A stretch of DNA of 64,000 bases, taken from NCBI GenBank assembly GCA_963758525.1, contig CAVWVQ010000003.1, positions 3,424,001 to 3,488,000 on the forward strand. The letters run 5' to 3'. Shown piece after piece: positions 39,892 through 53,762 of this stretch. A program made the translations under genes and the position numbers. Positions within the stretch are counted from its first letter, which is position 1. Every line of letters starts with the position of its first letter. This stretch comes from an uncultured Phycisphaerales bacterium (GTDB taxonomy: Bacteria > Planctomycetota > Phycisphaerae > Tepidisphaerales > Tepidisphaeraceae). Below the pieces are notes generated by a model. It saw only the letters and a program-made list of their open reading frames with translations, ran no database searches and was not told the origin of the DNA.

Positions 39892-39982
39892 TCCCCCTTT
39901 CACAACCCTACTTCTGATCCGTGCCACAATCTGTCGAAACTTCGCGCGCTGCGCAAATGTTCCTGGCCGACAATAAGCCAAA

Positions 39983-41034
39983 GATAAAGAGCCGCGAAGA
40001 CGCGAAGCAGCGAAGACAAACGCGAAGGAAGACAATTCAATTGCACATAAAAGCCAAAGCAAAATCCCGGGGATTCCAGCCCTGCGTTTTCTTACCTTCG
40101 TTTCTGTCTTCGCGCCTTCGCGCCTTCGCGGCTCTTCCTCTTGCGGCTTGCCGCGCTGGGATAAAGAGCCGCGAAGACGCGAAGCAGCGAAGACAAACGC
40201 GAAGGAAGACAATTCAATTGCACATAAAAGCCAAAGCAAAATCCCTGAGCTTCCGGCCCTGGGTTTTCTTACCTTTCGCTTCTGTCTTCGCGCCTTCGCG
40301 CCTTCGCGGCTCTTCCTCTTGCGGCTTGCCGCGCTGGGATAAAGAGCCGCGAAGACGCGAAGCAGCGAAGACAAACGCGAAGGAAGACAATTCAATTGCA
40401 CATAAAAGCCAAAGGCAAAATCCCGGGGGCTTCCAGCCCTGCGTTTTCTTACCTTCGCTTCTGTCTTCGCGCCTTCGCGCCTTCGCGGCTCTTCCTCTTG
40501 CGGCTTGCCGCGCTGGGATAAAGAGCAGCGAAGACGCGAAGCAGCGAAGACAAACGCGAAGGAAGACAATTCAATTGCACATAAAAGCCAAAGCAAAATC
40601 CCTGAGCTTCCAGCCCTGCGTTTTCTTACCTTCGCTTCTGTCTTCGCGCCTTCGCGCCTTCGCGGCTCTTTCTCTTGCGGCTTGCCGCGCTGGGATAAAG
40701 AGCCGCGAAGACGCGAAGCAGCGAAGACAAACGCGAAGGAAGACAATTCAATTGCACATAAAAGCCAAAGGCAAAATCCCGGGGGCTTCCAGCCCTGCGT
40801 TTTCTTACCTTCGCTTCTGTCTTCGCGCCTTCGCGCCTTCGCGGCTCTTCCTCTTGCGGCTTGCCGCGCTGGGATAAAGAGCAGCGAAGACGCGAAGCAG
40901 CGAAGACAAACGCGAAGGAAGACAATTCAATTGCACATAAAAACCAAAGGCAAAATCCCGGGGCTTCCGGCCCTGCGTTTTCTTACCTTCGCTTCTGTCT
41001 TCGCGCCTTCGCGCCTTCGCGGCTCTTCCTCTTG
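39983..41034. repeat. Tandem array of ~5.9 units of 177-179 bp, each internally palindromic
   Basis: Units start at 39983, 40160, 40338, 40517, 40694, 40873; arms AAGAGCCGCGAAGACGCGAAG / CTTCGCGCCTTCGCGGCTCTT. Confidence 0.95.
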
Positions 41035-41068
41035 GGACCTCAGTGTAATCCGTGGTGAATGACCTGGC

Positions 41069-42046
41069 CTAATCCCCCGGCAGCCGATACAGATCGCCGA
41101 ACTCCCGGTACCAGGCCACGAACTGCCGCAGTCCCTCCGCCAGCGGGGTCGTTGGCTGATATCCTAATTCGGCGCTAGACCGCGTCAGATCGGCAAACGT
41201 CCGCTCCACATCGCCAGGCTGCGAAGGCCGTTGCTCGATGATTGCCTTCTTCCCCACCGCGGTCTCGATCGCGGCAATCAAACCGGAGAGCGTGATCGGC
41301 TCCGAGCCGCCGAGGTTGTAGATGCGATACCGGTCGCAATGATCCAGGCTCGACAGAATTCCCGCGACGATGTCCTTGATAAACGTGTAATCCCGGCTCG
41401 TCGTCCCATCGCCGAACATCGGCACCGGCTTGCCATGGTCGATCAGTCGGATGAACTTATGGATCGCCAGGTCGGGCCGTTGCCGCGGCCCATACACCGT
41501 AAAAAACCGCAGGCAGAACACCGGAAGCTTGTAGAGATGCCAATACGCATGGCAGAGCAATTCGCCCGACCGCTTCGTCGCCGCGTACGGACTGATCGGC
41601 TCCGCGACCGGATCCTCCTCGTGAAACGGCACCCGCCCCAGATTGCCATACACGCTTGAACTGGAGGCGAAGAGGAATTTGCCGACCTTGTGATTGACGG
41701 CCGCCTGCAGCAGATGCGTCGTCCCCTCCACATTGACCCGCGCATAATACCCCGGCTGCTCGATTGACGGCCGCACCCCCGCCATCGCCGCCAGATGCAG
41801 AATCGCCAGCGGCCGCGTCCGCGCCACCAACTGGTCGATCCGCGGCCCGTCGATGATGTCGATTTCCTCAACATCGACCGGCTCCCCATGGATGCTCTTC
41901 AGATTGGTTTCCTTCCACGTGCGGTCGTAGAAGTCGCAGAAATTATCGACGCCGATGACGCGGTACCCGCGCTCGAGCAGCGCTTGCGCCGCGTGCGAGC
42001 CGATAAAGCCCGCCGCTCCGGTGACGAGAATGTTCTGCCTGGGCAT
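41069..42046 (-). CDS. NAD-dependent epimerase (UDP-glucuronate 4-epimerase-like)
   Basis: TGAAGFIG, HLAAMAGVRPS, YAATK, RFFTVYGPRQRPD. Confidence 0.93.
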   Translation of the reverse strand: MPRQNILVTGAAGFIGSHAAQALLERGYRVIGVDNFCDFYDRTWKETNLKSIHGEPVDVEEIDIIDGPRIDQLVARTRPLAILHLAAMAGVRPSIEQPGYYARVNVEGTTHLLQAAVNHKVGKFLFASSSSVYGNLGRVPFHEEDPVAEPISPYAATKRSGELLCHAYWHLYKLPVFCLRFFTVYGPRQRPDLAIHKFIRLIDHGKPVPMFGDGTTSRDYTFIKDIVAGILSSLDHCDRYRIYNLGGSEPITLSGLIAAIETAVGKKAIIEQRPSQPGDVERTFADLTRSSAELGYQPTTPLAEGLRQFVAWYREFGDLYRLPGD

Positions 42047-42154: not shown

Positions 42155-42376
42155 GAATCCAAGGAGGAACTGGCTGCGTTGCGCCGCGCGGTTGCTCGCG
42201 GCCGTCCCCACGGCGATGATCGCTGATCACAGCGGACGGCCAGGGCGCTGGGGACGGAAAGCTCCTTGCGCCCAATTGGCCGCCCGAGGACATCAAAGTC
42301 GCGCAAGAAGAAAGAATGATGCGGATGCCGGAACATTGGCTTATGACCCCTTTCCTCACTCCCCCTTTCCTCACTC
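42155..42376 (+). pseudogene. C-terminal remnant of a RAYT-like transposase with its right end
   Basis: ESKEELAALRRAVARGRPHGDDR*SQRTARALG..SLRPIGRPR aligns to the C-terminus of 43532-44203; followed by TTATGACCCCTTTCC with a 15-bp duplication. Confidence 0.65.
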
Positions 42377-43239
42377 TAGCCGTACAACAAAGAGATGCCG
42401 CGCACGAGAGCAGCTTCCGATTCACTTTCTGCTCTTGCCCGTCGCCTCTCTCTTTCCCTTTTTGTGTTTTTGTGTTTTTTGTGGCCATTCGCTGATTGAT
42501 CCCAACGCGCTCGGCCATGGTCTGCGCACATCGTCAATCAGAGTGCGACTTGGTGCTGAACCCGCGGCTGTCCCAGCGGATCTGTTGTCATTGCCTCACC
42601 GTATCATTTTCGCTCGACGCGATGCGACATTGATTGGCCTCCGGCTTCTCCGCTGCCAACGATTCGGTCTGTTCGAGGCGTAGGGTCCGCTCGGCGGCTC
42701 CTAAGGTACGCCTCGAATGGCCGAAAGCGGCGAGCCGCCGTGCGGACCATTCCTCGACTTCCGCGAGAATCCTCGACGGCGCTCTCCGCTGTCCATAATG
42801 AGTTATCCATTCAACCCGTTTCTAACAGCTGTCGCAGACGGTAATCCACCTTGATTGCGTGTGTCCAAAAGCCGACGGATCCTCCGTCGGAACTGCTCTG
42901 CGCCTGGGCCGCAGCCGATGTCTCGAACTCCTGACTCCTGGGTTCCCTCTCCTCTCCTCCGGCCCCGATTCGTGGCGTTGAAACTACGAAATCCCCCGTC
43001 TGCGATGCGACGTTTACTGTCGCCCGAATTTTGCAATCAGGACGTCCAGACCCCAGCTTCCCCCGCAAAGTGGCACGAAGTGGCACATTATTTTCCGAGC
43101 CCGACCGTGCTTTCAGCGGATTTCCCTCCTCGTTTAGCCGGTGGGCATGCCCGCCGTGTCGCCGCAGGCGAACCGATTTCCAAAACCACGCAGTGTCCTG
43201 CGCTATCCGATGCGCCGCGAAAACTTCTAACCGGACGAA

Positions 43240-43378
43240 ACTTGCAACGGCTCACCATCACACATGTCCGGCGATGGGTGGAACATCACCATCGGGTGGG
43301 ATATGGATCGGTCTATCAGGGCCGCTACAAGTCCTTCCCCGTCCAGGACGATGCGCATTTCTCCACGCTGGTGCGAAG
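43240..43378 (+). pseudogene. Internal fragment of a RAYT-like transposase
   Basis: LQRLTITHVRRW..GSVYQGRYKSFPVQDDAHF. Confidence 0.75.
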
Positions 43379-43465
43379 CCGGCAGAGGAGATTCCCCTGT
43401 AGTAGCAAGGCCGTCCCGGCTGTGATTCAAAAGCCACAGCCGAGACGGCTGTGCTGCAGCCTGCA

Positions 43466-44232
43466 GGAAGGCTGTTAAGGTGACATCCATCTTTCTTGAC
43501 GATGCTCATCCGCTGAATATATCATGCGGCCAGGCCCCGCACTTCTCGAGCCGCGATCGGCGGTCTGGTTTACCACGTTCTCAATCGCGGCAACGGCCGG
43601 CTGGAGATCTTCCGCAAGCCGGGAGACTTCCTGGCGTTTTGCGATCTGATGGTCGACGCCAAGGAACGGGCCGAGGTCGAAGTGTTCGGCTTCTGTCTGA
43701 TGTCCAACCACTGGCACATGGTGGTGCGGCCGCGTCGGGATCAGGACCTGGCGAGGTACTTCTCCTGGCTGACCAATACGCACGTGAAGCGGTACCGTGC
43801 TCATTACCGTCGGACCAGCGGCCATCTGTATCAGGGCCGCTACAAGAGCTTCGTTGTCCAGGAAGATGGGCATTTGCTAACACTGCTGCGTTATGTGGAA
43901 GCCGATCCATTGCGGGCGAACATGGTGGAGCGGGCGCAGGACTGGCACTGGTCGAGCCTGGGCTGCCAGAAAGAGCTGGCGAGACAACTGCTCGACGATT
44001 GGCCGATCGACCGCCCGCGGAACTGGACGGCGCTGGTGAACGAGCCGATGGATCCGGCCGCCGTGAAACGGGTGGCACTTAGCTTCGAGCGTGGCCGGCC
44101 GCTGGGAAGCGATCCCTGGACCCTGAAAATGGCGGGCCGGATGGGGCTGCAGTACACTCTGAATCCGAGAGGCAGGCCGAAGATGCCGGAAAAAGGCAAA
44201 TAAAAACGGTGGATGTCACCTTAACAGCTTCC
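43466..44232 (+). mobile_element. Y1/HUH (RAYT-like) element 1 bounded by inverted repeats; ORF 43532-44203, start codon mutated to AGG
   Basis: Ends GCTGTTAAGGTGACATCCA / TGGATGTCACCTTAACAGC; YHVLNRGN, MSNHWH, QGRYKS, LRYVEADP. Confidence 0.88.
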
Positions 44233-44472
44233 CCTGACGCGCATTACGGCGATTGGACGGACGCGGATCCAAAAGTTTGCGATTGCATAACCAGTCAGGC
44301 TAAGCAGAAACAATTCAATAATAACGATAAAGCTGCGTACCGGCTCCTGGGAACGAATAGCAATTGGGCGTCGAAGTGCTACTTAAAGTCATGCTGTGGC
44401 CACGAGTTGGCATTGCCACCAGGGGCGGTCGGGGCGAATGACGGCACTCAATGCCCGAGCTGTGGTTGCTGA
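44233..44472 (+). pseudogene. 5'-truncated orphan toxin C-terminal domain
   Basis: Lower GC; Cys-rich; YRLLGTNSN motif; begins at the element right end. Confidence 0.55.
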
Positions 44473-44554
44473 AGATTGGCATCGCGATGTTTTCAAGTTT
44501 CGGTTGGTTCTGTCGTCTACTATAAACGGGTACGAGATAGTTGGAGATGCTGCT

Positions 44555-44890
44555 ATGCTACGCCACCTAATGGGATTGCTGAATGTCGGCGTAATTCTAT
44601 TTGCAGCAGATGCAGGGTGCTGTACTGTTAGCCCCAACCAAGACCAAATTGAGGCATGGGTTCGCACTGAACTGCCGCGGGGGAGTACTGATTCGGACGT
44701 GCGCGCGTTCTGTGTCCGGCATCATTTCTTCTATGATCACAACGTCATGGCCGACAAGACCGGAGTCGAGCTTCTGCGTCCGCTGAAAGGATGTGATAGC
44801 CAGAAGCCAATGGCCACGATAACGGTCACCTACGACGCCGACGGACGACTGGTCGAGGCGGTAACTAAAACATTTGGTCTGACATTTTAA
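44555..44890 (+). CDS. Putative immunity lipoprotein
   Basis: Hydrophobic leader followed by AGC; follows the toxin fragment; lower GC. Confidence 0.55.
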   Translation: MLRHLMGLLNVGVILFAADAGCCTVSPNQDQIEAWVRTELPRGSTDSDVRAFCVRHHFFYDHNVMADKTGVELLRPLKGCDSQKPMATITVTYDADGRLVEAVTKTFGLTF

Positions 44891-44928
44891 GAGGTCATGA
44901 GCGGGATGCAGCTGGTTTTGGAGAAACA

Positions 44929-46689
44929 GAAGCTGTTAAGGTGACATCCATCTTTGATTGACAGACTTTTTGCCGGAGTTATGATCCAACTATGCCCCGC
45001 ACGTCCCGCGCAGCTGTCGGCGGGTCTTGTCTACCACGTTCTCAATCGCGGCAACGGCCGGCTGGAGATCTTCCGCAAGCCGGGAGACTTCCTGGCGTTT
45101 TGCGATCTGATGGTCGACGCCAAGGAACGGGCCGAGATCGAAGTCTTCGGCTTCTGCCTGATGTCCAACCACTGGCACATGGTGGTGCGGCCGCGTCGGG
45201 ATCAGGACCTGGCGAGGTACTTCTCCTGGCTGACCAATACGCACGTGAAGCGGTACCGTGCTCATTATCGGCGGACCAGCGGCCATCTCTATCAGGGTCG
45301 CTAGGCTCTGTCTGACGGATCGAATGTTCGGCGCTCGTTAGGTATTGCGCGTTCTTCTATGATCGTCATGATGTTCTCCACATGGAGGACAGATGGCGCA
45401 CTACGAACTCACGGATGATCACTGGAACCTGATCAAGGCACTTTTCCCCGTACAAAAACGTGGCGGACGATGGAACGACCACCGCATCACGCTCAATGGG
45501 ATGCTCTGGATTCTTCGCTCCGGAGCTCCATGGCGAGACATGCCCGAACGCTACGGGAAATGGAAGAGCGTCTATGATCGCTTCAACCGCTGGCGGCGCG
45601 AAGGCTTCTTCGATCGCATCCTCAAAGCACTGCGGATTCGACTCAACAAGGAGGGCAAGATCGATTGGGATCTCTGGCTCGTCGACGGCTCCAATGTGCG
45701 TGCTTCTCGCGCTGCCGCCGGGCGCGCAAAAGGGGGCGCGGCCTCGACTTCGAACCGGCCGACCACGCGCTGGGCCGCTCGCGCGGCGGATGGGGATCAA
45801 AGTTCCACGTGGTTACTGACGGAAAGGGCCTTGTGCTCGCCGTCACCGTTACCGCGGGGCAAACGCACGAATCCACGCAGCTCCACAAGGTGATGCACGC
45901 GGTGCAGCACCCCTGCACATCGGCTGGCCGGGGAAGATCGCGGGCGACAAAGGGTACAGCTACGAAACCGTTCGCCAGTTCCTGGCCGATTGCGGGATCG
46001 AAGCCGTCATCCCGCGCAAATCCAATCAGCCACGACCAAAGGGCGAGCGATTCGATAAAAGCAGCTACCGCAAACGAAGCCGCATCGAGTGTGCTATCGG
46101 ATGGCTCAAGGAATGTCGTCGGCTGGGAACACGCTATGAGAAGCTGGCTCTTAACTTCTTGAGCTTCGCCAAACTCGCTATCATGCTGAAATACCTGAGG
46201 GTTCTCGATCCGTCAGACAGAGCCTACAAGAGCTTCGTTGTCCGGGAAGATGGGCATTTGCTGACACTGCTGCGTTATGTGGAAGCCAATCCATTGCGGG
46301 CGAAGATGGTGGAGCGGGCGCAGGACTGGCACTGGTCGAGCCTGGGCTGCCAGAAAGAGCTGGCGAGACAACTGCTCGGCGATTGGCCGATCGACCGCCC
46401 GCAGAACTGGACGGCGCTGGTGAACGAGCCGATGGATCCGGCCGCCGTGAAACGGGTGGCACTTAGCTTCGAGCGTGGCCGGCCGCTGGGAAGCGATCCC
46501 TGGACCCTGAAAATGGCGGGCCGGATGGCGCTGCAGTACACTCTGAATCCGAGAGGCAGGCCGAAGATGCCGGAAAAAGGCAAATAAAAACGGTGAATGT
46601 CACCTTAACAGCTTCCTGAATCCGAGAGGCAGGCCGAAGATGCCGGAAAAAGGCAAATAAAAACGGTGAATGTCACCTTAACAGCTTCC
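44929..46689 (+). mobile_element. Y1/HUH element 2, interrupted by IS5, with a duplicated right end
   Basis: Left end GAAGCTGTTAAGGTGACATCCA; near-identical to element 1; right end repeated with a 73-bp period. Confidence 0.88.
45304..46224 (+). mobile_element. IS5-family (IS427-like) insertion sequence, 921 bp
   Basis: Perfect 20-bp TIR GGCTCTGTCTGACGGATCGA; TA duplication; WILRSGAPWRDMPERYG; likely slippery AAAAGGGGG at ~45728; DKGY; RYEK. Confidence 0.95.
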
Positions 46690-46697
46690 CCACGCTC

Positions 46698-49600
46698 GTG
46701 GCGAAGTACGGGTACGACGGCCGGGGCTTCCGCATCGTCAAGAAAACCTACACGTCTGGCACGCTCTCCGAAACCCGTGATTTCTACTTCACCAGCAACT
46801 GGCAGAGCATCGAAGAGCGGGTCGGCGGAAGTATGGTCGATCAGCACGTCTGGGGCGTCCGTTTCATTGATGAACTGGTCTGCCGCGACGATGCTACGCC
46901 CCAACGCCTCTACGCCATGCAGGATGCCAACTTCAATCTGACGTGCATCAGCGATGCCAGCGGCATTGTCGTCGAACGATACGTATTTGATCCGTACGCA
47001 AAGCGTGCTATTTTGAGCAGCTCGTGGGGCCTCATCTACACAAGCAGCTATGGATGGGTGGTAGGATTTCAAGGACTCAACTACGATAATTTTAGCAACG
47101 CGATATACGCAAGAAATCGATATCTTCACCAGCTAGGACTTTGGCTGAGCCGGGATCCTCTGAAATCTTCAATGGAGCGTAATTTATATCAGTATATCAA
47201 CAGTAATCCGTTGAAATACGTTGACCCAATAGGGCTACAAGCTGGTCCAACAAAACAGCCGACGACACGGCCATCGCTCATTCCGCCACAACATGTTCCG
47301 GCGGAGGACGACCCCAAATGCGGCGTCACTCTTAATCAAAGGAAAGAAATCGGCGGACACGAATGGATCGGTATCGATTTGGGTGTTCCAGGCCAGTTGC
47401 CTCTCGGTGCGGGATTTTGGCCCTCCGGTTGGCAAACGTGGGAACCAGCACGCAAAACTCAATCCGTAATTGGAACCGAGCAAGGGGAATATTCGAAGGC
47501 CGGCGATCCCCAAACAGGCTGGGGAGACCCATACGCGGGATCCACCCATTTGACTCGCAGCCGCGCACATCAGACGCTGACCTACGCAGTGAACGTGAGC
47601 ACCGGAGACGTCGGAAACGCCTTGATTGGAAACACCTGGTACGACCCCTCGGGAAATGTTCTGCAGAGCATCGGCGAGGGAGCCGGCAAAGTCTTCACCA
47701 AGCAAACCTACAACGGCGTCGGCTGGGTGATGTCCAGCTACCGCGGTTACAACACGTCGGGCGTCAGCTACTCGCAAGCGACGACCGTGTCCGGCGATAT
47801 CATCGTCGAGCAGAAGGACAACACATACGACGAAGCGGGGAATATCGTCGGTTCCGCAATGAGTCAGCGGCTCAACGACGCGCCTGCCAGCGGAACGGGA
47901 AGCACGGGCGCACTGTCGTACAGCAGCGATCCCAAGGCCCGCGTCTCGTACACGGCAAGCTGGTTCGACGGAGTTGATCGGGGAATCGCGAGTGCCAACT
48001 ATGGCGCAATCGCGAGTTTCACCCGGCCCAGTACACCGCCTTCGTCTTCGGCGTCCGTTCTTGTCACTTCAACCGCGTACGATGATGCCAGCCGGCCCTA
48101 CCAGGCGACCGACCCGATGGGCGTCCTGAACCAGACCGGCTTCGACAACGCCAATCGAACGACGCAGACAACCGAGGACCTCGGCGGGCTCGCACGCACC
48201 ACGAACTTCACGTACACGTTAGATAACCTGATCCGGACGATGACAGCGGTGAACTCCAGCACCGGCGACCAGACCACAACCTGGGTGTACGGCACGACAC
48301 TGGCAAATTCCGGCGTCGCCCGCAACGATCTGCTCCGAGCGACGATTTATCCCAACACCGATCTTTCGTGGGCGACACTGACCGCCGATCAGTGGACGAG
48401 CCTCACCGCCGCTCAGTGGGCCTCCCTACGGGCATATCCAGTGGATACGACATTCGCGAACTACAATCGACTCGGCGAGCAGACGACCTTCACCGATCAG
48501 CGGAGAGCTGTCCGGACCTTCACGCGCAACGCGCTTGGCCGGCAGACCGATGATGGCGTCACCACGGTCGGCGCGAATACCGACAGCGCGGTGTTGCGGA
48601 TCAGTCGCGCGTACGAAATTCGCGGCTTGGTCTCGATGATCACCAGCGCCGATAACGCCACGCCCGGCGCTGGCACGATCCTCAATCAGTTCAAACTTAC
48701 GTACAACGATTTCAGCCAGCTCAGCAAAGATGACCAGGAACATTCCGGCGCAGTCGGCAGTTCAACACCGAGTGTGCAATACGGCTACGACTCCGGCGCT
48801 TCGAGCTCGAATCAGGTTCGATTGAATCGCTTGACTTACCCGAACGCCCGCCAGATCACCTATAGCTTCGGAACCTCTGGCGGCATGAGCGACTACCTGG
48901 GCCGAGTGGAGGACATCATCGACACCACCAGCGGAAGCACGACGCTGGCGCAATATCTGTACGTTGGCGCAGGCAAGGTCATCCGAATCACCTACCCCGA
49001 GCCCGGCGTCTGGCTGGATTTGTGGGGTGGAACCTCGGGAACTTTCGCCGGAATCGATCTCTTCGGAAGAATCATCGACCAGCGCTGGCAGAACAACATC
49101 GCCAGCACGCCAGGCGATATCGACCGCTACAAATACGGCTACGACCAGAACTCCAATCGTCTCTGGAAAGCCAACGTCGTCGGCACCGCCGCCATGACCG
49201 CGGGACTCGACGAGTTCTACGTGTACGACCCTCTGAATCGCCTTACCGAAATGCAGCGGGGTGTACTCAACGGCACCCAAACGGGCATCACGGGAACGCC
49301 AAGCATCGAGCAGGACTGGACACTCGATCCCACCGGCAACTGGGCCAACTTCACGACCAAGGCCAGCGGAACGACGGATCTCGATCAAACCCGCACTGCG
49401 AACACTGTCAACGAGATCACCAACATTACAGAAAGCACCGGCCCGACCTGGGTCGTCCCGGCATACGATGCGGCGGGTAATACAATAACGATGCCGCAGC
49501 CGGCGAGTCCGACGAACAGCTTTGCCGCCGCATACGATGCATGGAACCGGATGGTCAGCATCAATGATTCAGCAAATCCGGTCGGTAAGTATCAGTATGA

Positions 49601-50759
49601 CGGCCGGAACTTCCGGATCGTGAAGAAAACATATACCTCGGGCGTGCTCTCGGAAACTCGCGATTTCTACTTCACGAGCAACTGGCAGGATATCGAAGAG
49701 CAAGTCGGCGGAAGCATGGTCGATCAGTACGTTTGGGGGATTCGCTATATCGACGAACTGGTCTGCCGCGATGATGCCACGCCGCAACGGCTATACGGCA
49801 CACAAGACGCAAACTTTAATCTAACGACCGTTACCGACAGCACCGGGACCGTAATTGAACGTTATCTATTTGATCCGTACGGCGTTCGAACGGTCATGAA
49901 TGCTTCATGGAGTATTTCGGGCTTCAGTAGCCATGCATGGCGCATAGGATTTCAGGGCTGGTACGAAGACGCAGAGAGCGCCCTGCAAAATGATCGAAAT
50001 CGTGTGCTCAGCGCGCTCATCGGTTCATGGCTGCAGCGAGACGACCGATACCGCCAAAACGCAAGCCTTTACTCTCTTGAGGGGAACTCCCCCATCGGCC
50101 GGCGAGACCCAACCGGCCGCGACTACTATTCCGACTCGGGCTTTGCGGGCCAGATTTCCCGCGACGAGTTTAACGAGCTGCGCGCGATCATCGAGAAGCA
50201 AACTGGCGAGGCGCATGGTTACGGGAGCGGCGTCGATACCGTAAGTGCCCTGTATGCTACGCAAGCTTTAGGATGGGACGTCAGCAAGCTCTCAGCCGCA
50301 CAGATATTTAAGTTCTTTCGGGAAGAACTGTCGGTACAGGCTGCTATGAACAACGCGTGGAACAAGAGCCTCGCAAACGATCCGGCGATACTTTGCTACC
50401 TCAATTGCAAGAAGAAGTCACTCGCGGGAGCGGCTGGAGTTGGAGGCCTCGGTGGTGCGCTTCCGAATCTTCCCTATTTCCCCAAGGTGTTGTCGTACCC
50501 ATTCCTGGATCCAGGTTCCTACGCCGACTATTTGAAGGGAGGGCCGATTGGAACATTACGCACTGCCGTAGCGGCAGTCGCCGAGCAGTTTGGGTTCGAT
50601 GGCGTATATGAGTCGCTGATGGCCGGACGCGGTCTCGCTCTTGTGCGCGGTGGGACGAGTCCGTTCCTCGCGTATGGCGGTGCGGGTGCAATCGAGGGAG
50701 CACTCCTCCTTGTCACATCGCTGTCGATATACTGCTCCCTCAAATGCCGCTGCAAATGA
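46698..50759 (+). CDS. Chimeric, 5'-truncated RHS/YD-repeat polymorphic toxin ORF with two RHS core ends
   Basis: YD repeats; DPIG at 47223 and DPTG at 50106; 295-bp core block repeated at 46704-46998 and 49587-49881. Confidence 0.9.
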   Translation: MAKYGYDGRGFRIVKKTYTSGTLSETRDFYFTSNWQSIEERVGGSMVDQHVWGVRFIDELVCRDDATPQRLYAMQDANFNLTCISDASGIVVERYVFDPYAKRAILSSSWGLIYTSSYGWVVGFQGLNYDNFSNAIYARNRYLHQLGLWLSRDPLKSSMERNLYQYINSNPLKYVDPIGLQAGPTKQPTTRPSLIPPQHVPAEDDPKCGVTLNQRKEIGGHEWIGIDLGVPGQLPLGAGFWPSGWQTWEPARKTQSVIGTEQGEYSKAGDPQTGWGDPYAGSTHLTRSRAHQTLTYAVNVSTGDVGNALIGNTWYDPSGNVLQSIGEGAGKVFTKQTYNGVGWVMSSYRGYNTSGVSYSQATTVSGDIIVEQKDNTYDEAGNIVGSAMSQRLNDAPASGTGSTGALSYSSDPKARVSYTASWFDGVDRGIASANYGAIASFTRPSTPPSSSASVLVTSTAYDDASRPYQATDPMGVLNQTGFDNANRTTQTTEDLGGLARTTNFTYTLDNLIRTMTAVNSSTGDQTTTWVYGTTLANSGVARNDLLRATIYPNTDLSWATLTADQWTSLTAAQWASLRAYPVDTTFANYNRLGEQTTFTDQRRAVRTFTRNALGRQTDDGVTTVGANTDSAVLRISRAYEIRGLVSMITSADNATPGAGTILNQFKLTYNDFSQLSKDDQEHSGAVGSSTPSVQYGYDSGASSSNQVRLNRLTYPNARQITYSFGTSGGMSDYLGRVEDIIDTTSGSTTLAQYLYVGAGKVIRITYPEPGVWLDLWGGTSGTFAGIDLFGRIIDQRWQNNIASTPGDIDRYKYGYDQNSNRLWKANVVGTAAMTAGLDEFYVYDPLNRLTEMQRGVLNGTQTGITGTPSIEQDWTLDPTGNWANFTTKASGTTDLDQTRTANTVNEITNITESTGPTWVVPAYDAAGNTITMPQPASPTNSFAAAYDAWNRMVSINDSANPVGKYQYDGRNFRIVKKTYTSGVLSETRDFYFTSNWQDIEEQVGGSMVDQYVWGIRYIDELVCRDDATPQRLYGTQDANFNLTTVTDSTGTVIERYLFDPYGVRTVMNASWSISGFSSHAWRIGFQGWYEDAESALQNDRNRVLSALIGSWLQRDDRYRQNASLYSLEGNSPIGRRDPTGRDYYSDSGFAGQISRDEFNELRAIIEKQTGEAHGYGSGVDTVSALYATQALGWDVSKLSAAQIFKFFREELSVQAAMNNAWNKSLANDPAILCYLNCKKKSLAGAAGVGGLGGALPNLPYFPKVLSYPFLDPGSYADYLKGGPIGTLRTAVAAVAEQFGFDGVYESLMAGRGLALVRGGTSPFLAYGGAGAIEGALLLVTSLSIYCSLKCRCK

Positions 50760-50806
50760 TCGGCGCCGTGAAACCGCCGACGTGCTTTGGCTCGAAGGGT
50801 CCGGTG

Positions 50807-51064
50807 ATGGGAATTGAGCACATTGACATGGCACGAAGACTGGAGAGCCGGCTCGCGGTGTCGCGTCGCGAGATTTGGGCCGACCCTCCGCCGAGGACCT
50901 TTGGCGAACTCTATTCAAATCTACGTCGATTGCCACAACTGGCGTCGGTGCCAGATGAATTATTATGGGAGGCGATCATCCAATCACTGCGCGGCACCGT
51001 GCATCCTCTGATTCCTCACATAGACGAGAATACAGAAATTGACGATATTCTCTCAGGACTATAA
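50807..51064 (+). CDS. Putative immunity protein
   Basis: Small, lower-GC ORF directly after the RHS C-terminus. Confidence 0.5.
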   Translation: MGIEHIDMARRLESRLAVSRREIWADPPPRTFGELYSNLRRLPQLASVPDELLWEAIIQSLRGTVHPLIPHIDENTEIDDILSGL

Positions 51065-51147
51065 CACTACGAAACCTGGGTGAGGAAAGACTGCTATGGA
51101 TGAAAACTTCTAATGGGACGTCCCGTTAGAAGTTCTGCCGCCGAAAG

Positions 51148-51390
51148 ATGGGAAGCGGCGCTTGGGATCCGGTAGAGCAGGCCTCGTATGCCTATTACGG
51201 CGCTTCGGACGCCAATGGCAACGTCAACGATCTTCAGTCCGCCTCCCGCCAGCTTCCCGATGGCTCGGGCGGGTGGAACACCGTCGCGGTGGAGTATGAC
51301 CGCTATTACCTGACCACCGCGGGCACCGGCATCGTTCACGGCCTGAAGATGCACTTCGGCACCGCAAAAGAATTGGACCCGTCCCGTTAG
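51148..51390 (+). pseudogene. Orphan internal RHS fragment
   Basis: QASYAYYGASDANGNVNDLQSA...YDRYY...HGLKM. Confidence 0.55.
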
Positions 51391-51700
51391 GCGATTCCGA
51401 ATACGTAAAATTCTGTAAAGTTGTGTAAACCGAACCGCTGATTCCGAGCGACAAACAAGGGTTGACCGCCCGGCGGTCACTGGCGTTGTCCCGGATTGTA
51501 AAGCGGGCTGTTTGCTATGATCCCCTTTCCTAACCCCGGCGGTCCGCCGGCGGGGCGGGATGACGGTGACCCCGGAACATAGGGAGTGAATCTACCCGCA
51601 GACCGCTTGGCGACGGTTGTGAAAAAAACGTCTCGCTATGCTGGCCTGCGGGCAAGTGGTTCTTCTTGACCTCCCAATCGGCGCACATTACGGTTTGATC

Positions 51701-53391: not shown

Positions 53392-53434
53392 TGTGCTTCC
53401 TCAACAGAGCTCCAGCAGGGCCAAGCCGAAAACT

Positions 53435-53650
53435 AAAGAGCCGCGAAGACGCGAAGACAGACGCGAAGAAGAAGGAGAGTAAAAAAAAGCGATTTCCACG
53501 GCTCGAGGGCGACGGGGCCCGCTTCCCCAGCGTTGAAAGGATCTCCTCCGCGCCATCTTCAGTCTCGCGCAGCTTCTCGTTTTCGTAACATGATGTTTTT
53601 CGATCTTCCTTCGCGTTTGTCTTCGCGCCTTCGCGTCTTCGCGGCTCTTT
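53435..53650. repeat. Single copy of the GCGAAG-type inverted-repeat element
   Basis: Same arms as the units of the 39983-41034 array, different interior. Confidence 0.8.
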
Positions 53651-53762
53651 GCTTTTGTTTTTTCCGGCAGTGCGACAATCAGGACCACTCGCGCAAATCA
53701 AAAGTCCACGAAGCACGCTTCGTGGACCTTGATCGATTGAATCGCATTGTACGGATTTAAGG

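Follow-up and report, generated by a model that had tools for sequence, protein, structure and literature searches.

TIRtron ends at breakpoints of a putative RHS toxin-immunity array in an uncultured planctomycete

Between positions 42,155 and 51,700 of a 64-kb window (the whole stretch of 64,000 nt analyzed here, from the genome of an uncultured Phycisphaerales bacterium, G000), two small transposase-bearing elements and remnants of others lie among fragments of RHS genes, and element ends run directly into truncated coding sequence. By their sequence, the window elements are TIRtrons, a family of single-strand transposons which together with their transposase (TIRYT) were named in 2013 (PMC3733652) and correspond to subclass 2.1 of the TnpA-REP/TnpA-Y1 proteins (PMC6006769). 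The reading preferred here, with modest confidence, is that TIRtrons join their ends to DNA without regard to its sequence and in doing so bracket random slices of RHS arrays. The passages on this class in the two papers describe a class-2 Y1 HUH gene (Y---NP), extended C-terminally and lying between terminal inverted repeats whose core is GGGGWSAS-like, without hairpins of the repetitive extragenic palindromic (REP) type, all as in the window, and the extension is likened there to helix-turn-helix (HTH) domains (Bac_DnaA_C, HTH_23, HTH_28). Class 2 is described in the same passages as low in copy number and diverged within a genome, whereas G000 carries 31 ends of one family, with genes that are 85–100% identical. 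Subclass 2.1 is given as the second largest Y1 HUH group, present in 14.9% of strains (PMC6006769). The main texts of both papers make no mention of 'rhs', and their passages on the class give neither a cut site nor a mechanism; no biochemical study of subclass 2.1 was found in the literature. In openly accessible main texts, no report was found that links RAYT, TIRYT, TnpAREP or HUH proteins to rhs, polymorphic toxins or immunity, and the relevant passage of PMC3482391 mentions XerC/D, not HUH enzymes.

Subclass 2.1 genes have been described beside prochlorosin genes (bioRxiv 10.1101/2020.03.09.984088) where, as in the window, whole and truncated copies occur among a variable gene family. Diversifying recombination was proposed there, the authors adding that the evidence on causation was strong in neither direction; the genes there are oriented towards one another with a constant spacing and no inverted repeats were found, whereas in the window the ends are fused into genes, on the same strand and at variable points. 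The closest solved fold to the predicted TIRYT model is TnpA-REP of E. coli, the REPtron enzyme (PDB 4ER8, E 8.8e-8), for which a passage of PMC3479197 proposes that any single-stranded DNA 3'-OH could resolve the phosphotyrosine. According to the same source, TnpA-REP depends on a REP hairpin that contains GTAG and cleaves at CT, whereas the window ends do not fold, and what is constant about their joints is the distance, not the sequence. The Rhs C-terminal displacement model outlined in PMC2935791 deals with arrays like that of the window, in which partial cores and tips are accompanied by small downstream genes; that model invokes homologous recombination among almost identical cores that lie downstream of an intact gene, whereas in the window the cores are 74–78% alike, there is no intact gene and pieces start at element ends. 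The rAID-1 arrays of Bacteroidales (bioRxiv 10.1101/471110) likewise combine a recombinase gene with co-directional downstream immunity genes. They differ in having a XerD-type enzyme, intergenic repeats and whole genes, where the window has an HUH enzyme, arbitrary cuts and mixed cargo. One-ended rolling-circle capture by IS91/ISCR elements also involves an HUH enzyme, no target duplication and one-sided joints that carry neighboring DNA; those elements have a Y2 enzyme and two unlike ends, and the window TIRtrons a Y1 enzyme and two like ends.

Transposases and end sequences

TIRYT is a 223-aa Y1 HUH protein with the class-2 motif Y---NP. PF01797 (Y1_Tnp) matches all 38 aligned members, among which H60, H62 and N125 are invariant and Y121 nearly so, and NF047646 scores the protein at 63 bits (cut-off 80). 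The C-terminal extension is helical and about 80 aa long in the predicted model, with an HTH Pfam match in none of the 38. The first-pass annotation had described two near-identical HUH transposase genes with inverted ends, and this was borne out: the two copies are 97–98% identical, and each is bounded by a 19-nt end. This family-A end occurs at two left ends, 43471(+) and 44932(+), and three right ends, 44210(-), 46594(-) and 46667(-), with no further copy in the 64-kb window when up to four mismatches are allowed. Across relatives, the end profile has the core G-G-[GT]-G-[AT]-C-[AG], with GGTGACAT in family A, and inverted arms, some of them weak, lie around 173 of 200 full-length TIRYT genes. 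The elements are assigned to the TIRtrons because a class-2 Y1 HUH protein is framed by inverted arms with a shared core.

At least four end families (A–D) occur in G000, with B and C being sisters of A. The two older remnants first noted at 42155 and 43240 are real (42162–42359 and 43219–43377) and derive from families B and C. Three of four additional short palindromes (51102–51135, 51363–51398 and 51517–51534) also proved to be ends of sister families, of which only the first folds. The fourth, 47535–47551, was rejected as an end: it resembles no end family, does not fold, and no copy in the genome or the loci examined shares its context. The proposal that the ends are hairpins had to be abandoned, since the end regions (z -0.4 to -0.7) and three of the four palindromes fold no better than shuffles.

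Other identities were considered and rejected. REPtrons or RAYTs proper, which have flanking REP hairpins with a 5' tetranucleotide, are excluded by end regions that fold no better than shuffles, and IS200/IS605 by the length of 223 aa, Y---NP in place of Y---Q, like ends, no hairpins and no fixed target word. An integron-like or rAID cassette array does not fit genes cut at arbitrary points and joints that lack an end, and a classical Rhs C-terminal displacement array does not fit a locus where no rhs gene is full-length and cores are 78% identical. Overlooked at the first pass were the splitting of element 2 by an IS5 insertion sequence (IS), the 73-nt duplication of its right end, and the lost ATG and Asp-for-Asn replacement in element 1. 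Both window copies are damaged and their TIRYT genes look dead, so that any present activity would come in trans, for example from the intact-looking gene at C1:316072-316740.

Joints with RHS genes in the source genome and its relatives

Both right ends run into 5'-truncated coding sequence, as first described: at 44232 into half of a putative toxin domain (P0001, its full-length counterpart, is known from another contig) and at 46689 into a mid-core RHS fragment (Table 1). The N-terminal half of the former has no match anywhere in G000. A contig of another sequencing run (X2) matches 44103–44232 unchanged and continues into other DNA from exactly 44232. The earlier impression that target duplications are absent was upheld, none being visible by eye at nine complete family-A elements of G000. 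The family-A ends of this genome are spread over 12 loci. Ten of 20 right-end matches lead into a truncated frame on the same strand and then a small intact gene or RHS (by eye), and the remaining partners of right ends include a piece of a DUF4058 gene (76% identical to a paralog resident in the genome), further repeats and ordinary genes. For those interrupted sequences that also exist in another copy, the joints are A^T, G^C, G^A, T^C and C^C, with 0–1 shared bases and no fixed sequence. Left and right flanks are unrelated in both complete elements that are directly comparable; at C3:303778 and C3:4614567 the left flanks match repeats whose continuation differs from the right flank. A DUF2515 fragment at C2:453636 matches longer proteins, none listed with an RHS domain among proteins of up to 2000 aa.

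The enrichment near RHS genes that had been suggested as a test is seen in the relatives (40 genomes), where proximity was defined as lying within 3 kb of an RHS core and only genomes with RHS were counted. Among the matches listed, 9 of 77 TIRYT matches are this close (0.3 expected), all on the same strand, versus 2 of 172 control IS matches (DDE_Tnp_1 2/111, 0.49 expected; IS110 0/61) and 0 of 50 for IS5, a set that overlaps the DDE set. The Fisher p of 5.6e-4 for 9/77 versus 2/172 is overstated by kinship; five RHS matches lie outside the RHS list used for the relatives, and one control match and a few tally rows come from the unpublished genome G004. The link between TIRtrons and RHS in the relatives is not random. 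Right ends are fused straight to RHS cores in three relatives (G001, G002 and G016) with different end sequences and TIRYTs that are 44–48% identical to the intact G000 copy, and the breakpoints differ each time (query positions ~191, 492 and 747, versus 659 in the window). An RHS piece runs into a left end in G019. Most module boundaries of three RHS arrays in G002 carry whole elements, mini-elements or solo ends, and a large RHS gene heads one array (L051). Overlapping RHS pieces are 70–87% identical in TIRtron arrays (three genomes) and mostly 80–99% in comparison arrays.

Several further arrangements were observed. In G002, a mini-TIRtron of ~105 nt with both ends (L052:12215-12320) connects a piece of RHS with a piece of a C-terminal domain. 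Three genomes (L003:8100-10500, L028 in G004, and L029) have membrane proteins with a terminal zinc-ribbon motif of the CxxCGYDLRA type behind TIRtron ends, possibly an unnamed immunity family. In G000, a family-B TIRtron lies among Imm22 and DMP19-like genes (L012, C1:200000-211000) in a setting that resembles a polyimmunity locus, and ends of families D, B and A form nested chimeras in two copies (C3:224536-224911 and C3:4614802-4615058).

End duplications and a model of sequence-blind joining

Stutters, tandem duplications that span the outer edge and measure 9 nt or more, are present at 62 of 248 distinct ends, compared with 11 of 744 controls inside genes and 11 of 626 in flanks. The repeated unit starts 10–14 nt outside the core in 42 of the 62, its inner edge varying, and the window joints lie 12–15 nt from the core. 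Judged by this geometry, the nick site likely lies 10–14 nt outside G[GT]G[AT]C.

In the model proposed here, the HUH transposase would nick the inward-reading strand at that distance and hold the 5' end of the element on its tyrosine, by analogy with the chemistry of the HUH family, before transferring it to nearly any available 3' end. A stutter would form if the 3' end left by the nick itself were briefly extended and then rejoined, and a one-sided joint if foreign or broken DNA provided the 3'-OH acceptor, two such joints bracketing a slice. Taken together, these steps (nick and phosphotyrosine, origin of stutters, joining to an acceptor) are held with good confidence. Random slices of RHS toxin-immunity arrays could thus become bracketed by ends. 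RHS slices may be kept more often if transcription from the element promoter crosses the right end and reaches intact immunity genes, and if the islands tolerate rearrangement; selection for immunity as the cause of this retention is offered tentatively, with somewhat less than even confidence. Promoter matches are predicted in both left ends and no plus-strand terminator match at the right ends, so that downstream immunity genes could be read. The outcome of such end joining would be an accumulation of immunity genes, not the construction of new functional toxins. More speculative, and on balance unlikely, is that TIRtrons form a site-free gene-capture platform in this planctomycete lineage, with broken foreign DNA ligated between ends behind the element's own promoter, an acquired defence that would stockpile rivals' immunity genes, including alleles too diverged for homologous recombination.

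A number of observations weigh against sequence-blind joining that brackets RHS slices. The near-RHS TIRYT matches come from 5 of 22 genomes, with five of the nine from G002 alone, and within G000 RHS-core homology is found at only 2 of the 12 family-A loci (the window and C3:304856-305665). In a wider set of 159 loci, the best matches of genome and metagenome scans, an RHS core lies in the examined flanks of six (four on the same strand; ~1 expected, a rough figure), and many of these TIRtrons sit between ordinary genes; same-strand neighbors are in any case a general majority (45/70). In loci not chosen for TIRYT, an end is present at 4 of 69 orphan (truncated) RHS starts, where the background is near 1.4%, by a test (score threshold 11) that misses some ends visible by eye and includes a few rows that are frameshift pieces. 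Some RHS joints have no end motif (47555 in the window; L004 near 8850). Three of nine IS5 copies in G000 sit at family-A loci, and other IS share the islands. At C3:303778 one duplication begins in the flank and not at the outer end, and stutters could also be explained by slippage of a polymerase where protein is bound to an end. Among RHS loci from across the phylum, 1 of 30 carries an end-like match, which is at background. From the 6/159, 1/30 and 4/69 it follows that RHS arrays mostly form without TIRtrons, and that TIRtrons mostly lie away from RHS. The impression that a genome must have TIRYT for its orphan RHS starts to carry ends was not borne out in a larger set (5/39 in genomes with a close TIRYT, 0/13 with a distant one, 2/33 with none); without 16 rows from loci chosen for TIRYT, the close-TIRYT genomes give 2/23 versus 2/33 for none. 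Separately, an end-like motif with a stutter lies in front of an orphan RHS piece in G040 (L297 near 1437, reverse strand), a genome in which no TIRYT was found with alignment A1.

Alternatively, TIRtrons may simply have inserted into dispensable RHS debris, followed by deletion beside the ends or recombination between near-identical copies, with no capture and no benefit. RHS arrays do arise without TIRtrons, whole elements sit between ordinary genes elsewhere, IS5, ISAzo13-like and other IS sequences occur in the same islands of G000, and two DDE_Tnp_1 matches near RHS exceed the 0.49 expected. Such an origin is nevertheless judged rather unlikely, in that other IS families are about tenfold rarer near RHS and all nine near-RHS TIRYT matches share one strand, while toxin-like fragments flank ends far from RHS cores and the missing half of the gene at 44233 is absent from G000. 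The stutter geometry is left unexplained by insertion and deletion, though it is compatible with them.

The first-pass annotation had gone further in the other direction, proposing a dedicated system in which the HUH enzyme would exchange the toxin tips of a functional RHS gene. The array boundaries of G002, mostly marked by elements, mini-elements or solo ends, the large RHS gene at the head of L051 and the 1353-codon in-frame RHS chimera in the window are what such a system might leave behind. This is considered improbable: breakpoints are arbitrary, toxin domains are cut and ends remain between the pieces; a search of G000 yielded no RHS gene of this type in full length; an end motif is missing from the in-frame joint at 47555; orphan starts rarely carry ends (4/69) and do so no differently with a close TIRYT than with none; and the ends are not hairpins, with most TIRtrons located elsewhere. 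What stands of the proposal is that the ends are joints and the enzyme their likely maker. Assembly chimeras at a repeated element might be suspected from the 31 near-identical ends, the metagenome-type assembly with 6% contamination and the IS5 indels relative to other runs, but they are very improbable given that independent genomes show the same layout with other end sequences, that the contig from another sample leaves identity at exactly 44232, and that the distance between joint and core is constant. A dedicated toxin shuffler fits the evidence less well than promiscuous end joining with an RHS bias limited to this lineage, and the joints are real and probably enzyme-made. From the stutter pattern, a specific cut site and a substrate can be named with which to begin assays of subclass 2.1, and if the ends do ligate unrelated DNA, mosaic toxin-immunity loci could arise without sequence homology, in addition to the recombination by which orphan RHS tips are usually explained.

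Features of the window

Table 1. Features of the RHS and TIRtron locus (window coordinates).
Feature	Position	Strand	Basis or remarks
Older family-B TIRtron, right half and right end with short stutter	42162..42376	+	86% to positions 599-795 of C1:205195-205991 (family B); end motif score 17.2
Apparently non-coding multi-copy segment, from family-B right end to family-C left end	42380..43218	.	93% to C3:302973-303691; many more genome matches
Family-C outer left end (18 nt) fused at core to internal family-C transposase piece	43219..43377	+	tblastn 52%; piece recurs at C3:4264714 and C3:303778
TIRtron element 1, family A	43467..44232	+	End positions uncertain by 1-3 nt (G/C run)
Predicted sigma70-like promoter match, element 1 left end	43496..43525	+	10/12
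TIRYT gene 1, likely dead	43532..44203	+	PF01797; ATG lost, Asp replaces invariant Asn125 of Y---NP
Putative toxin domain, C-terminal half, 5'-truncated at element 1 right end	44233..44472	+	Residues 90-169 of 169-aa P0001, 85% identical
Intact 111-aa lipoprotein-like gene, candidate immunity protein	44555..44890	+	97% to P0002; immunity suggested by position
TIRtron element 2, family A, interrupted	44929..46689	+	19-nt ends at 44932, 46594 and 46667
Predicted sigma70-like promoter match, element 2 left end	44958..44985	+	11/12; top match of 3 in 8.5 kb (shuffles: 3.6 expected)
IS5-family DDE element, 920 bp, CTA target duplication, splits element 2	45304..46223	+	1 of 9 genome copies
Tandem duplication (stutter) of element 2 right end, 73 nt	46617..46689	+	19-nt end repeated, at 46594 and 46667
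RHS core end of second allele and truncated C-terminal domain	46690..47555	+	TIGR03696, 45.5 bits; 78% nt to 49587-49881
5'-truncated RHS core with complete C-terminal domain	47556..50759	+	Fused in frame to the 46690..47555 piece; no end motif at joint
Small gene, candidate immunity protein	50807..51064	+	Position only; no family match
Empty family-C element, two outer ends fused at core, true palindrome	51102..51135	.	Folds, z -5.35
Slice of N-terminal part of RHS gene	51136..51362	+	37-40% to RHS proteins of G028 and G002
Family-C right end, last 36 nt	51363..51398	+	Matches C1:319410 and C3:4265201
Solo family-B end	51517..51534	-	2 mismatches to family-B motif

The locus itself contains no full-length RHS gene. 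The label of toxin given at the first pass is backed by homology for the RHS pieces only, and neither the C-terminal domains of the window nor its immunity candidates have a Pfam or NCBIfam match; the pairing of these genes as polymorphic toxins and immunity proteins is putative and based on architecture. The domain shared by 44233 and P0001 gave weak papain-like leads only, and the second C-terminal domain had no usable Atlas match. About 20 relatives of 98–115 aa were found for the gene at 44555 among 27 matches, and a profile of the immunity candidate found no relative in the loci examined.

The two ends of the empty element at 51102 are fused at the inner edge of the core, and contigs of run X3 extend inward from 51363. 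Contigs from other runs cover mainly the mobile parts and scattered RHS pieces, and in the search of sequencing runs no run held half of the region's words and no RNA run was listed. Small indels relative to such contigs, at 45719, 45727 and 45909 in the IS5 copy and at 45022 in element 2, mean that some window frameshifts may be assembly errors. GC skew in G000 is too flat to call a replication-strand bias, and viral contigs had no match to the transposase patterns.

Segments of the type found at 42380–43218 (600–800 bp, 80–95% identity) occur at C3:302973, 881417, 2840744, 3844703, 4150467, 4263874 and 4624457, often adjoining TIRtron ends, and are possibly a non-autonomous passenger. Upstream of the locus, 39918–41109 is a tandem array of about six 178-bp units with an internal inverted repeat family, solo copies of which are found near 53.4–53.7 kb (53429–53657).

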